From a phage: a stretch of DNA of 64,000 nucleotides. Made by a program: the position numbers and the translations under genes. Below the pieces are notes generated by a model. It saw only the letters and a program-made list of their open reading frames with translations, was not told where the DNA came from and did no database searches. Positions 40,893-60,371 of the stretch are shown piece after piece (position 1 is the stretch's first letter; each line of letters begins with the position of its first letter). The stretch lies in NCBI GenBank assembly GCA_033648345.1, contig GCA_033648345.1_4121.1; one strand, written 5' to 3'.

Positions 40893-40912
40893 CCACCAGC
40901 TTGTGCTGGTGG
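40893..40912. other. inverted pair of Chi octamers forming a hairpin
   Basis: CCACCAGC-ttgt-GCTGGTGG. Confidence 0.85.
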
Positions 40913-41125
40913 ATTCCCTCTAACAGTATTCAGTACTACATGATAGTCTTCATCCTCCTAGGGTAACATAGTGAGGGCTATGATGGCAGTACTGAATACT
41001 CCTTTCACAAGATAGATCTATGGTATAGTACTGACGTATTTTGGGCGTAGTTACCCTGGATGGATTTTGGACGTAGATATGTCTAGCCCTCCAGAAGTCT
41101 GGAAGTAAATATGGCTATCCATCTA

Positions 41126-41208
41126 GACGGCTAAACGGCTAGATTTCTGGATGGCTGGGTGGCTGGGTGGCTGGGTGGCTAGACGTTTGGACGGCTAAAC
41201 GGCTAGAT
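41126..41208 (+). repeat. tandem GGCTGGGT x3.5 (41153-41180) flanked by 19-bp direct repeats
   Basis: GACGGCTAAACGGCTAGAT at 41126-41144 and 41190-41208. Confidence 0.85.
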
Positions 41209-41412
41209 GGTTACACGTCTGGAAGTATAGACGGCTAAATCAAAATTTTATTTTGTTTTTTCCAATAGTTCCCCTACCGCGTGGGGATAGTTTCCCCGCA
41301 GTATCTGGAGTTAGATTTTTCTGAATCTGGAATCATTATCTTATAAACTGGGGGCAATGTCAACAGCCTGGACGGATATTTTTAAAAATTTTTTCAGTAC
41401 TGAATTTTGGGC

Positions 41413-41433
41413 GTAACTATGCACCCGGTGGGC
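41413..41433 (-). repeat. conserved core element copy I (candidate small RNA)
   Basis: Minus strand: TATAAT(41466-41461)..ATCAAGTCGAGAAAGACTCAA-GCCCACCGGGTGCATAGTTAC. Confidence 0.7.
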
Positions 41434-41580
41434 TTGAGTCTTTCTCGACTTGATGGAACTATTATACAGTACTGGAAAAATAAAGCAATACCCTGGAAGC
41501 AAAAAAGTTTTAATTAATTTGCTTGCTATCCTGGGCCGGACTATGGTACTATATTTCAGTACTGAGAAAGTGCGTTTACC

Positions 41581-41603
41581 TGCTAGGGTGCGGGAGTGTA
41601 TCC
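41581..41603 (+). repeat. conserved core element copy J+ (partial)
   Basis: TGCTAGGGTGCGGGAGTGTATCC + T7; preceded by ACT-GAGAA-AGT mini hairpin. Confidence 0.6.
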
Positions 41604-41628
41604 TTTTTTTATATCTTGAATTTTGGGC

Positions 41629-41649
41629 GTAATTCCGCACCCTCTGGGG
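41629..41649 (-). repeat. conserved core element copy J-
   Basis: Minus: TTGACT(41704-41699)-N16-TATAAT..ATAGACGCGAGAAAGCGGAAA-CCCCAGAGGGTGCGGAATTAC. Confidence 0.65.
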
Positions 41650-41859
41650 TTTCCGCTTTCTCGCGTCTATGTAGTAATTATACGCTTTTTCAGGATCAAG
41701 TCAATACCTAAAAACAAAATAATTGAAAATAATTTAACGCGTTTAAACGGCCAGTAAAGCCCTGGAATGATTGGAATGGTGCAAATGTATAGCTTAGGTG
41801 TATTAATGCGTTAGAATGCGTCTGAGGCCGTTTTATGGGGTATAGGGATGATTTGGTGG

Positions 41860-41990
41860 ATTGATTCAGTACTGAATAATAGTACTACTATATAGAAAGA
41901 TAGTTCCCCTGGATGGTTGCAGTACTGAATGATAGTACTGAATAATAGTTCCCCTATATAGAAAGAAAACTATTTTAAAAAGTATTTGTA
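41860..41990 (+). repeat. direct repeats of about 45 bp built from CAGTACTGAATAATAGT and CTATATAGAAAGA
   Basis: cagtactgaataatagtactactatatagaaagatagttcccct / tagtactgaataatagttcccctatatagaaagaaaac. Confidence 0.75.
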
Positions 41991-42081
41991 GAAAGTACTT
42001 GCAAACTAAGTTTAACGGCGTATAATGTTTTACATCGAGAGCGGGAACACTTCCCGCTACATATTACGAGAGATTAAAACG
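41985..42081 (+). promoter_or_regulatory. promoter + 5' stem-loop cassette (PeSL-like, class AGTACTTGCA)
   Basis: AGTACTTGCAA..TATAATGTTTTACATC; hairpin GCGGGAA-cac-TTCCCGC. Confidence 0.7.
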
Positions 42082-42444
42082 ATGGCGACTCAAATCACTA
42101 AAATTATTGCTAACCTGGTTAACTTCCGCGACGAGATGAAAGGTCTTCCGGCTGAAACGGTAAAAATTCACATCGCAGCTTATCGGGAACTTATTGCAAT
42201 GTTGCCGCTTAAGCGTGAACAATACGCCGCGACCGTGATGCTTGATGCGATGATCCATAAGATGATCGCCAGTGATTTGACGATGGCGTATCAGTATATG
42301 GGTGAATTGTTCGCGGTGTATAGTAAACCAGTACCAGGAATGGAAAGTACAGAAGTATTACACGGTTTAAATTTAAAACAAGATGCATGGGATAATATGC
42401 CTCGTTTCCTGGTATGGGCTGACAGTGGCAAGATTTACGAATAA
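42082..42444 (+). CDS. hypothetical protein
   Basis: ATG 42082 (MATQITK); track start 42025 begins in the TATAATG of the -10. Confidence 0.7.
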   Translation: MATQITKIIANLVNFRDEMKGLPAETVKIHIAAYRELIAMLPLKREQYAATVMLDAMIHKMIASDLTMAYQYMGELFAVYSKPVPGMESTEVLHGLNLKQDAWDNMPRFLVWADSGKIYE

Positions 42445-42536
42445 GTTTTAGAAAGTACTTGCAAACTAAGTTTAAAAGCGTATAATGTTTTACATCAGGT
42501 GGGGAATAGTTCCCCACTATATAAGAGGATTAAAAA
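42445..42536 (+). promoter_or_regulatory. promoter + 5' stem-loop cassette
   Basis: AGTACTTGCAA..TATAAT; hairpin GTGGGGAA-tag-TTCCCCAC; GAGGA RBS. Confidence 0.7.
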
Positions 42537-42776
42537 ATGGCTAAATCAAAAATGTTCTTAGGTCACAAAAACAAAACTCATTGGAATGTAAGCCTTTGGA
42601 TTAATAACGATGAGTCATTGTACCGGTTGGCCCTGGACTTTATTGCCGCCAATACTAATCGCAATGATGCGGCCCGTCATATGATGTTATTTTTAGAACA
42701 GACTGGACAAGATAAAACACCGGACGGATTCAAATATAGCACTACTGCGATCCGTGCGGCGATGGTTGGAATGTAA
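42537..42776 (+). CDS. hypothetical protein, paralogue of 44576
   Basis: GHKNKTHWNVSLWINN.ESLYRLA...TPDGFKYSTTAIRAAMVGM shared. Confidence 0.75.
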   Translation: MAKSKMFLGHKNKTHWNVSLWINNDESLYRLALDFIAANTNRNDAARHMMLFLEQTGQDKTPDGFKYSTTAIRAAMVGM

Positions 42777-58965: not shown

Positions 58966-59052
58966 AAAGTACTTGCATTGTAGTTAGATTAACGTATAAT
59001 GTTTTATATCGAGAGGGGGAAATGGTTTCCCCTCAAGTCCAGGAGATACACC
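58966..59052 (+). promoter_or_regulatory. promoter + 5' stem-loop cassette
   Basis: AGTACTTGCATTG..TATAAT; hairpin GAGGGGGAAA-tgg-TTTCCCCTC. Confidence 0.7.
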
Positions 59053-59316
59053 ATGAACACTATCGAAATCACTATCAATGCACACGTATACGACAACGTA
59101 GTACTGCAAACTACTATGACCGCTAATGATACCAGTACTTTGCGGAATACTGTTATTAGTGCCGTATGTGCTGCAATCGGTGATGTATCCCTGGAAAATG
59201 CAGAACATATCAACAACGGTTTCACTATGTGCAAGCGTGATAACGCAAAACATATCATCGTGGAAGGTTACGGCGGTGTAGAATTTAATGTTTATATGAA
59301 AAAAGTACTTGCATAA
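59053..59316 (+). CDS. hypothetical protein
   Basis: ATG 59053 (MNTIEITINA) after AGGAGA. Confidence 0.7.
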   Translation: MNTIEITINAHVYDNVVLQTTMTANDTSTLRNTVISAVCAAIGDVSLENAEHINNGFTMCKRDNAKHIIVEGYGGVEFNVYMKKVLA

Positions 59317-59383
59317 TAACTAAAACAAAGTATAATGTTTTGCATAGGGGGAGATATCCTCCCCCACTAAAAGGAGTAATAAA
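59295..59383 (+). promoter_or_regulatory. promoter + 5' stem-loop cassette (-35 inside upstream gene end)
   Basis: AGTACTTGCATAA..TATAAT; hairpin GGGGGAG-atatc-CTCCCCC. Confidence 0.7.
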
Positions 59384-59608
59384 ATGGCTAACTTTGATGA
59401 ACTGATGCGGGAAGTAGCTAACCTGGCAGAAGAGAAGAAATCATTCGATTCTATCTATAACACCGCTCACCGTGATTCAGTACTGGCATGTAACCAGGAT
59501 CAAAAAGATGAACTAATCGCCACCTATCATGAAGCATGGAAGTACTACCGACAATGGGAGAAAGAAGAAAGTGAGTCTACCATTGACGGCCTCAATAATC
59601 TAATCTAA
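59384..59608 (+). CDS. hypothetical protein
   Basis: 74-aa ORF, AAGGAG RBS. Confidence 0.7.
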   Translation: MANFDELMREVANLAEEKKSFDSIYNTAHRDSVLACNQDQKDELIATYHEAWKYYRQWEKEESESTIDGLNNLI

Positions 59609-59684
59609 AAGTTTTATTTCAGTACTATTGACATAGCTTGATAGTACTGATGTAATAACTTTACTAACTACAAGGGGAAACATA
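59609..59684 (+). promoter_or_regulatory. promoter class AGTACTATTGACA..AGTACTG
   Basis: CAGTACTATTGACATAGCTTGATAGTACTGATGTAAT. Confidence 0.6.
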
Positions 59685-59942
59685 ATGGAACAGTTCACAC
59701 AATATCGGGTAAATCCACAAGCTATGGCCTACGTAGAAGACCATAAAACGTTACCAGTACTGCAACCAGTTAAAGGCCGTATCTATCGTGGCCTTGCCTG
59801 GGATACGGCCCAGGATGGATATAAAACCGTCGCCGTGGGGATGTATTGCGGGAATGGTGAATGGTTTGATCCTAGCAATCCGATTGCACTTGACAGTACT
59901 GAAAAAATGAAATGGGCCGACTACATCGAAGATATTTCATAA
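59685..59942 (+). CDS. hypothetical protein
   Basis: 85-aa ORF. Confidence 0.7.
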   Translation: MEQFTQYRVNPQAMAYVEDHKTLPVLQPVKGRIYRGLAWDTAQDGYKTVAVGMYCGNGEWFDPSNPIALDSTEKMKWADYIEDIS

Positions 59943-60032
59943 AAACTATTTGACAGTACTAACCAGTAATGTATAATGTTTTACATAGAGCGGGGGAATA
60001 GTTCTCCCGCCAATAGTTTGGAGTTAAACATT
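59943..60032 (+). promoter_or_regulatory. promoter + 5' stem-loop cassette (TTGACA class)
   Basis: TTTGACAGTACTAACCAGTAATGTATAAT; hairpin GCGGGGGAA-tag-TTCTCCCGC. Confidence 0.65.
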
Positions 60033-60233
60033 ATGTCTATCGCTATCGCCCTGGTTGAAGTACTGAAAGAAGCTAAAGCCAACCAGATCGACGTAAAGAT
60101 CCAGGAACTACAAAACGGCTTAATCGGCTGTACTTGTACCGCTGGTGGAGCGGCAGACTATCGAGAACACGAATCACTCGAATCACTGGTTCGGTATCTT
60201 ACCATGATCGTTGATGATTGGAGAATCATCTAA
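60033..60233 (+). CDS. hypothetical protein
   Basis: ATG 60033 (MSIAIALVEV); Chi at 60151. Confidence 0.65.
   Translation: MSIAIALVEVLKEAKANQIDVKIQELQNGLIGCTCTAGGAADYREHESLESLVRYLTMIVDDWRII
60151..60158 (+). other. Chi octamer (in coding sequence)
   Basis: GCTGGTGG. Confidence 0.9.
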
Positions 60234-60251
60234 CAAAAAAAGAATAAAAAA

Positions 60252-60284
60252 GGGATTGACTCCGGTCAGTCCCTTTGCTATTAT
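60252..60284 (+). promoter_or_regulatory. UCCG hairpin terminator with embedded -35 and downstream -10
   Basis: GGGATTGAC-TCCG-GTCAGTCCC; TATTAT 60279-60284. Confidence 0.7.
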
Positions 60285-60302
60285 ATACGCATAGACAAAA
60301 AC

Positions 60303-60328
60303 TAGCCCACAGGGTGCATAGGTGTATC
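60303..60328 (+). repeat. conserved core element copy D
   Basis: TAGCCCACAGGGTGCATAGGTGTATC; Chi GCTGGTGG follows at 60364. Confidence 0.75.
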
Positions 60329-60363
60329 TAAAATATATAGTTAATAACGGTGAGTAACTATCT

Positions 60364-60371
60364 GCTGGTGG
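60364..60371 (+). other. Chi octamer (intergenic)
   Basis: GCTGGTGG downstream of core element D. Confidence 0.9.

Follow-up and report, generated by a model that had tools for sequence, protein, structure and literature searches.

Why should one block of a phage genome be seeded with the octamer at which the host enzyme RecBCD changes its mode of action? The DNA in question, a stretch of 64,000 nucleotides (GenBank assembly GCA_033648345.1, contig GCA_033648345.1_4121.1; the whole stretch is called the window here), contains many exact copies of the Escherichia coli Chi octamer GCTGGTGG, nearly all of them within some 21 kb. We argue below that this block is the direct terminal repeat (DTR) of a jumbo phage, and that its octamers are selected, RecBCD-directed Chi sites serving both the rescue of the genome ends and recombination between the repeats, a reading to which we assign a probability of about 0.7. 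The phage would then probably turn the host RecBCD into a helper.

An exact search of both strands of the whole window returned 13 copies of GCTGGTGG, 11 on the plus strand and two on the minus strand (Table 1). A first-pass annotation of the same DNA had listed ten plus-strand copies; nine of its coordinates were right, the copy at 56965 had been missed, and the one placed at 60151 starts at 60141. Its two minus-strand copies, at 40893 and 47343, came out of the search unchanged, and the clustering that it described between 40.9 and 60.4 kb also stood, with ten of 11 plus-strand copies in place of nine of ten. Dinucleotide-preserving shuffles of the whole window held a mean of 0.72 copies over both strands and a maximum of 4. 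For positions 40001–61600, Markov models of orders 0–4 trained on that block predicted 0.12–0.59 plus-strand copies against ten observed (Poisson p = 8e-10) and 0.05–0.12 minus-strand copies against two observed (Poisson p = 7e-3), an enrichment of about 20-fold covering both orientations; counted over the repeat, 12 copies per 21.4 kb compare with 0.2–0.7 expected. The shuffles and the models agree with the earlier estimate of less than one copy per strand and place Chi far above chance, and the Markov comparison that the annotation had proposed, run on the exact octamer, gave an excess at orders 0–4. Orders 5 and 6 were discarded as circular, their training data including the Chi sites themselves, which is the only reason that they come near the observed count.

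The enrichment is limited to the exact octamer, since each of the 24 single-mismatch variants of Chi occurs 0–1 times in the block. Chi ranks 22nd among the over-represented octamers there, and nearly all of those that outrank it are parts of the palindrome CAGTACTG or of a shared promoter, both of them long and repeated; outside these elements, Chi is the best-ranked octamer of the block.

The nature of the block was established by homology. The window is 93–96% identical in patches to the Asteriusvirus jumbo phages of E. coli (the PBECO4, 121Q, G17 group, 350–385 kb), and by this similarity it is from an Asteriusvirus-type E. coli jumbo phage. The first-pass annotation had argued for an enterobacterial host, in agreement with nearest relatives that are E. 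coli phages, by which the host of this exact sequence is inferred. Direct terminal repeats have been reported for fEgEco12 (20,993 bp, detected by PhageTerm and confirmed by restriction digests), for vB_Ec-M-J (bases 1–21525, annotated as such) and for the Asteriusvirus Sharanji (20,668 bp). Base 1 of fEgEco12 and base 1 of vB_Ec-M-J both align to position 40317 of the window, and the ends of their DTRs map to about 61725. Judged by this end-to-end alignment, the block 40317–61725 is the DTR, about 21 kb long, with the left physical end of the genome at 40317 and the right at about 61725. Because the DNA flanking the block in the window, left and right, is single-copy in fEgEco12 and vB_Ec-M-J, the repeat is present in it once, in an assembly that was collapsed or permuted. 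The terminal repeat, which had gone unrecognized, is the key to the Chi pattern: 12 of the 13 sites in the window lie inside 40317–61725, and the other 42.6 kb holds one.

The block contains about 55 small plus-strand open reading frames (ORFs), separated by spacers of about 80 bp, and it has many hairpin terminators. Its GC content lies slightly above that of the flanking DNA, and on the right, beyond about 61.7 kb, genes overlap in operon-style packing. Its promoters, all on the plus strand, comprise 13 perfect matches to the sigma-70 consensus (TTGACA-N16/17-TATAAT) and more than 30 near-perfect ones. One extended sigma-70 promoter (AAAGTACTTGCAA ... GCGTATAATGTTTTACATCA), the shared element mentioned above, is present in about 19 copies, each in front of a small, hairpin-ended gene. 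In PA5oct, a Pseudomonas relative, the DTR genes are highly transcribed early genes by RNA-seq. From the sigma-70 promoters and this analogy, the block is predicted to hold immediate-early genes read by the host RNA polymerase. The co-orientation of Chi with transcription, which the first-pass annotation had remarked on, is borne out by the plus-strand location of all block ORFs and consensus promoters.

The confinement of Chi to the repeat can be followed over a whole genome in EC22.5-2 (OR845138.1), an unannotated record in which all 351,992 bp are assembled with one DTR copy. Of the 28 Chi in this genome, the 21.3-kb repeat contains 11 (9 plus, 2 minus) and the 331 kb outside it 17 (7 plus, 10 minus), a density about ten times higher in the DTR (p = 3e-7 for the placement of 11 of 28 sites in 6% of the genome). 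Outside the repeat, Chi occurs at about twice the expectation of order-3/4 Markov models. Three minus-strand sites lie there about 255 bp apart, at record positions 9277, 9535 and 9790, probably in tandem paralogous genes, and this trio accounts for part of the mild excess. The repeat of fEgEco12 has the identical 12 sites, with none in the following 29 kb, and that of vB_Ec-M-J has 11, with none in the following 8.5 kb.

Within the repeat, Chi is found in varied settings. Non-coding DNA makes up only about 30% of the block, yet seven of the 12 DTR sites fall between genes (p = 0.036); the five coding sites use two reading frames, four of them the Ala-Gly-Gly frame. A logo of 37 plus-strand sites from four lineages has almost no information outside the octamer; the base following Chi (+1) is A in 23 of the 37, against a background of 34%, and the base preceding it (−1) is T in 19. 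Placement in promoter spacers and terminator arms, as seen in fENko-Kae01 below, is what would be expected of an octamer fitted in at any position that can accept it.

Distant relatives, located in the GenBank phage collection by means of the protein kinase encoded in the repeat, have Chi clusters of their own. The DTR of the Klebsiella phage fENko-Kae01 (~29% average nucleotide identity; positions 1–19736, by PhageTerm) contains 12 plus and 2 minus sites, with none in the next 20 kb. The first ~17.6 kb of XbC2 (Mimasvirus; listed host Xanthomonas) contain 7 plus and 2 minus, with none in the next 8.7 kb; a block of ~22 kb in the RaK2-like Klebsiella phage OU509535 contains 8 plus and 1 minus, with none in ~18 kb of flank; and a block of ~21.7 kb in the E. 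coli phage EJP2 contains 7 plus and 1 minus, with one in ~30 kb of flank. The Chi positions mostly differ between the window and these four genomes. At positions 484–503 fENko-Kae01 has an inverted pair, CCACCAGC-ttaa-GCTGGTGG, of the same design as that at 40893–40912 of the window with unrelated flanks; at 19354 it has a Chi that forms a terminator arm, in the hairpin design seen at 51899, and four further sites lie within the spacers between −35 and −10 promoter elements. As for XbC2 (OP292654.1), the phage was recorded on Xanthomonas vesicatoria and the cluster in its positions 1–17600 (7 plus, 2 minus) is of the enteric type. The kinase encoded in its repeat shares 88% identity with the one from the Erwinia phage Kaldavass; this lineage seems adapted to a host of the Erwinia type, and the listed host may not be its main one.

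Long repeats in phages of other hosts, and that of T5, present a different picture. PA5oct (MK797984.1; Pseudomonas host, 39,080-bp DTR, 36.5% GC), although its GC content is similar, has no GCTGGTGG in 50 kb, and the Pseudomonas Chi, GCTGGCGC, is not enriched in its DTR (one copy in 1–39080), so that a Chi strategy is not universal among jumbo phages with long DTRs. XacN1 (Xanthomonas host, 66-kb DTR, 53% GC) has four plus and two minus copies of GCTGGTGG in 50 kb, not clearly above expectation, and its top octamers are tRNA and promoter words, with no candidate Xanthomonas Chi among them. The first 50 kb of T5 (NC_005859.1) contain two Chi, at 8127 and 8689, both on the plus strand and both in the right part of the 10.2-kb repeat; their polarity matches that of the jumbo phages, in a pair of sites too small to interpret. 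With clusters in the enteric-host relatives, no copy in PA5oct, two in T5 and no clear excess in XacN1, the Chi cluster tracks enterobacterial hosts and not long repeats as such. Chi-type motifs are conserved across the Enterobacteriaceae; Yersinia and Serratia hosts are reportedly without detectable Chi, and for Dickeya the motif GGTGGTGG has been reported. A scan of IMG/VR with the repeat-encoded kinase matched only phage 121Q, and a scan of the same database for the inverted-pair pattern CCACCAGCNNNNGCTGGTGG returned 46 stretches, all of which, except the 121Q locus, lie on contigs of 1.9–92 kb. A tblastn search with a post-repeat paralogue, fENko ENKO_053, found close relatives only. The exactness of the enriched sequence, the variety of its contexts, its recurrence in enteric-host relatives and its absence from the Pseudomonas relative support, from sequence comparison, the view that the octamers behave as selected host Chi, as the first-pass annotation had proposed.

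The orientation of the sites bears on how they would be used. RecBCD recognizes 5'-GCTGGTGG-3' only when approaching from the right as written, that is, when its entry end lies to the right of the site. In the right-hand copy of the repeat, an enzyme that enters at the right physical end would find all ten plus-strand Chi actively oriented, while in the left-hand copy two sites are correctly oriented for entry at the left. The strand ratio, noted as an orientation bias in the first-pass annotation, was considered as a sign of directional selection and was rejected through Markov and neighbor-word controls. The ratio of plus to minus sites is 10:2 in the window and 44:8 pooled over the five lineages; the strand composition of the block alone predicts about 4–6:1 (Markov orders 3–4), the one-mismatch variants in the block split 5:1, and the pooled 44:8 does not depart from an expected plus share of 80% (p = 0.26). 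The ratio being no more than composition predicts, direction-specific selection rests on the positional polarity of the sites. Pooled over the five lineages, seven of the eight minus sites lie in the left 36% of the block and 30 of the 44 plus sites in its right half (Mann-Whitney one-sided p = 4.5e-4, in a sample where lineages have some orthologous sites in common and where the edges are approximate for the XbC2, EJP2 and RaK2-like blocks). The first minus Chi lies 215–670 bp from the left end in four of the five lineages, the window and three others, in accordance with the earlier suggestion that the minus copies guard the opposite direction. The accompanying suggestion, that the plus copies protect against RecBCD arriving from the high-coordinate side, stands insofar as position ~61725 is the physical right end in the right-hand copy; protection, however, would be only half of the role of Chi.

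How might such sites serve an infecting phage? The steps set out here follow from established RecBCD-Chi biochemistry and from the precedents of P1 and the LLS-type phages. The injected DNA would be linear with a repeat at both ends, and RecBCD could load only at those ends; fEgEco12 DNA is cut as predicted by ordinary restriction enzymes and is therefore not heavily modified. RecBCD would unwind and degrade the DNA from the end up to the first Chi that it recognizes. Entering at the right, it would move leftwards through the right repeat copy and meet the ten plus sites, beginning about 1.35 kb from the end; from the left, it would meet one minus site after 576 bp and the second after about 7 kb. 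At Chi, it would cease to cut the 3'-ended strand and load RecA. Since the correctly oriented sites all lie within the repeat, the loss would be confined to DNA that is present twice, and the RecA-coated 3' tail would have its homologue in the repeat at the opposite end of its own molecule or of a sister molecule. By invading that repeat, the tail could give rise to a circle, a lariat or a head-to-tail concatemer junction with one repeat copy, and could prime replication.

A signal carried in the DNA itself would work at time zero, before any phage protein is made, which would suit the first minutes of infection, when only the host RNA polymerase reads the early genes of the repeat. The abrupt stop of Chi at the repeat boundary would be expected because a Chi in unique DNA would, in a single infection, give a tail without a partner. 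The ladder of sites across the repeat may likewise be explained by partial recognition at each of them, which in vitro amounts to roughly one in three, so that ten sites together would approach certainty. A speculative reason for the small number of left-end Chi is that replication primed by right-end invasion would be co-directional with transcription of the repeat.

Several observations weigh against this use of RecBCD, beside the loss of the strand ratio as evidence and the shared sites and approximate edges in the polarity test. The left end, with just two correctly oriented Chi, would be poorly guarded if it entered first, and the RaK2-like genome is without a minus Chi close to that end. 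Chi activity in vitro is raised by purines at +4 to +7, a modulator and not a requirement; at the 37 plus sites these purines are not enriched (51% against a background of 54%). By a published rule for lambdoid phages, a high Chi content goes with the lack of both a phage recombinase and a RecBCD inhibitor; Asteriusvirus relatives, unlike the LLS-type phages, break the part of the rule that concerns a recombination module, Sharanji being annotated in its published description with a recombinase A, a RecD-like protein (helicase) and exonucleases. With a recombinase A-like protein and exonucleases encoded by relatives, the phage is likely to depend on RecBCD, if at all, only in the earliest stage of infection. 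Regarding inhibitors, the 55 ORFs of the repeat match 15 Pfam families, none of which is a known one, in a set in which inhibitors, being diverse, could be overlooked, and the PHROG matches listed for these ORFs have no described function. The check for Gam- and gp2-like proteins that the first-pass annotation had called for gave the same answer, in that T4 gp2 and lambda Gam found nothing below E = 2 in the whole EC22.5-2 genome (tblastn), a weak negative given the diversity of inhibitors. A further-reaching version of our reading holds that enterobacterial Rak2-like jumbo phages, despite a recombinase of their own, use RecBCD and RecA for a protein-independent, time-zero rescue and joining of the ends of a 350-kb genome, with the terminal repeat as a substrate built for recombination. 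Its Chi design would be two-ended, the left end having a minus Chi or an inverted pair within a few hundred bp and the plus Chi forming a ladder towards the right. We put this version forward tentatively, as one that we doubt more than we believe.

The sites might also do no more than switch off the RecBCD nuclease, so that the ends last until phage proteins act and recombination between the repeats plays no part. Sites 0.2–1.7 kb from both physical ends in four lineages, a repeat filled with predicted immediate-early genes needed in the first minutes and the lack of a detected Gam or gp2 homologue would all suit such a role. We nevertheless regard it as unlikely, since by established biochemistry Chi-modified RecBCD still unwinds DNA and loads RecA, making recombination hard to avoid, and since protection leaves unexplained both the abrupt end of Chi at the repeat boundary, with no taper into unique DNA, and the spread of ten sites over 20 kb. 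Recombination, in the form of repeat-by-repeat formation of circles or concatemers as proposed for P1, fits the confinement to duplicated DNA at least as well as protection does. RecBCD products also feed the acquisition of spacers by CRISPR systems, and this acquisition is bounded by Chi; links between Chi and targeting by Argonaute have been reported as well. End-proximal sites could thus limit the products available for spacer acquisition or for the loading of Argonaute guides, and their closeness to the physical ends and their host specificity would agree with immune evasion. Few E. coli strains, however, have active adaptation, so that the benefit is likely weaker than that of genome survival or replication, and the confinement to duplicated DNA would go unexplained; we consider this explanation quite improbable.

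Slightly more improbable still is that the octamer is a packaging, ejection-pause or transcription signal of the repeat, with a coincidental match to Chi. Confinement to the repeat is as expected of packaging or ejection signals, one copy is a terminator arm and several lie in promoter spacers, and there is the weak preference for A at +1; yet the exact identity with the host Chi in five enteric-host lineages and its absence from the Pseudomonas relative speak against such a coincidence, and the sites have no common flanks or spacing and occur in coding and non-coding DNA alike. Chance, codon usage or an artefact of composition is effectively refuted as the source of the cluster. The first-pass annotation had raised Ala-Gly-Gly codon usage as an alternative, and four of the five coding sites are indeed in that frame, in a block somewhat more GC-rich than the rest of the genome. 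Seven of the 12 block sites are nevertheless non-coding, the one-mismatch neighbors are not enriched, the excess of about 20-fold was measured against Markov models of orders 0–4 trained on the block itself, and the enrichment recurs independently in other lineages. Selected, RecBCD-directed Chi sites remain the preferred reading.

The individual sites are collected in Table 1. Folding confirmed the tight hairpin that had been seen by eye at 40893–40912 and the location of one Chi in a terminator hairpin, the 3' arm at 51899, and the inverted bracket at 47343–47412 is as it had been described.

Table 1. Chi sites in the window, with the inverted pair near the left physical end. Distances are to the physical ends of the phage genome as mapped by homology.
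Feature	Position	Strand	Context
Chi	9219..9226	+	In coding sequence, outside the terminal repeat, isolated; fits low background density, not a member of the cluster
Chi, read as CCACCAGC on the plus strand	40893..40900	-	576 bp from left physical end; active orientation for RecBCD entering there
Chi	40905..40912	+	Inverted-pair partner of 40893
Perfect inverted Chi pair, CCACCAGC-ttgt-GCTGGTGG	40893..40912	.	8-bp stem, 4-nt loop; folding free energy -16.3 kcal/mol
Second minus-strand Chi	47343..47350	-	Intergenic; ~25 nt past terminator 47298-47318; ~7 kb from left end
Chi	47405..47412	+	Intergenic; orthologous site in EJP2
Chi, 3' arm of terminator-type hairpin 51884-51909 (AGCCCACTGGTTAACGCTGGTGGGCT, then TTT)	51899..51906	+	Folding free energy -19.1 kcal/mol
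Chi	52408..52415	+	Within 48-codon ORF, Ala-Gly-Gly frame; not found at the expected position in vB_Ec-M-J
Chi	53360..53367	+	Within ORF 53267-53455, Ala-Gly-Gly frame
Chi	54608..54615	+	Intergenic, just upstream of promoter 54656; orthologous site in EJP2
Chi	56965..56972	+	Within ORF 56927-57169, Leu-Val frame
Chi	58562..58569	+	Within ORF 58505-58777, Ala-Gly-Gly frame
Chi	60141..60148	+	Within ORF 59976-60233, Ala-Gly-Gly frame
Last plus-strand Chi	60364..60371	+	Intergenic; ~1.35 kb from right physical end; first Chi for RecBCD entering there

Other repeated sequences accompany Chi in the block. The palindrome CAGTACTG has 63 copies in the window against about one expected, often as TTCAGTACTGAA; it is densest at 40268–61453, with 41 copies in the terminal repeat and 22 outside. 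The XbC2 repeat block has 28 copies against about 3.7 expected, and the palindrome is common in the RaK2-like and EJP2 blocks; it may be an operator or regulator site. The left-terminal 1.7 kb of the repeat (40317–42024) has no long ORF, and the inverted Chi pair sits in this non-coding segment. A tandem array there, (CTGGGTGG) x4.2 at 41147–41180, reads as Chi plus one extra G (GCTGGgTGG), and repeated GACGGCTAAACGGCTAGA units occur near the left end, especially in the region 41120–41215. A role in packaging or ejection is possible for the array and the units.

Opinions still differ on whether Chi shields phage DNA, signals recombination in it or has no relevance. The signal described here is unusually clean, with fixed ends, an exact repeat, a sharp boundary, recurrence in enteric phages and absence from a Pseudomonas relative, which makes these phages a natural system for separating the shielding and recombination roles. 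It bears on how jumbo phages with repeats of about 20 kb begin replication, and it is a warning for phage therapy and engineering that a terminal repeat carries cis-acting host-interaction signals besides its genes. If the further-reaching version above is true, the octamers enriched specifically in the long DTRs of phages could reveal the Chi sequences of non-model hosts such as Yersinia, Serratia or Dickeya.

We found no published report on a role of Chi in these phages, nor any mention of Chi in the Asteriusvirus, CBB and PA5oct literature searched, and the nearest comparisons come from other systems. T5 resembles this phage in its long, exact DTR of small early genes with host-type promoters, which is the first DNA to be expressed (predicted here from sequence and the analogy with PA5oct), and differs in having only two Chi in its first 50 kb. 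The T5 record also has an annotated injection stop signal and the pre-early genes A1 and A2 for DNA transfer and host takeover, whereas two-step transfer is not known for jumbo phages. On the E. coli chromosome, Chi is co-oriented with the G-rich strand, mostly the leading and coding one, and RecBCD moving back from a break therefore encounters Chi in the active orientation. Chromosomal Chi are evenly spread, lie largely in genes and are tied to codon usage; in this phage, by contrast, they are confined to 6% of the genome and over half of the sites are intergenic.

The closest precedent is P1, in which Chi is the commonest octamer and is concentrated where the terminal redundancy falls, and for which RecA-RecBCD circularization has been proposed; growth of P1 depends on RecA and RecBCD. 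P1, P7 and D6 share with this phage a linear virion DNA with terminal direct repeats and an over-representation of Chi where the ends lie, and in P1, as here, Chi is also common in non-coding DNA. P1 differs in being temperate and in packaging headfuls from pac, with variable repeats and Chi spread over tens of kb in both orientations, whereas the present jumbo phage is virulent and about 350 kb in size, its ends are fixed, and its Chi stop at the boundary of an exact 21-kb repeat and mostly face one end. The LLS-type lambdoid phages without a Rec module (Zheng et al. 2025; Bobay et al. 2013), whose growth is enhanced by RecBCD, likewise have many Chi clustered near one end and mostly oriented for RecBCD entering there, a pattern taken to mean that their recombination-dependent growth makes use of the host RecBCD. 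These phages, of the cos type and about 45 kb in size, lack long repeats, and their Chi extend over a quarter of the genome. What differs here from P1 and the LLS-type phages is a virulent jumbo phage with fixed ends, the confinement of Chi to an exact repeat, an inverted Chi pair near the terminus that recurs in a distant relative and, by the annotation of relatives, a recombinase of the phage's own. For a specialist on RecBCD, the finding would be a clean and testable extension of these systems and not a surprise.

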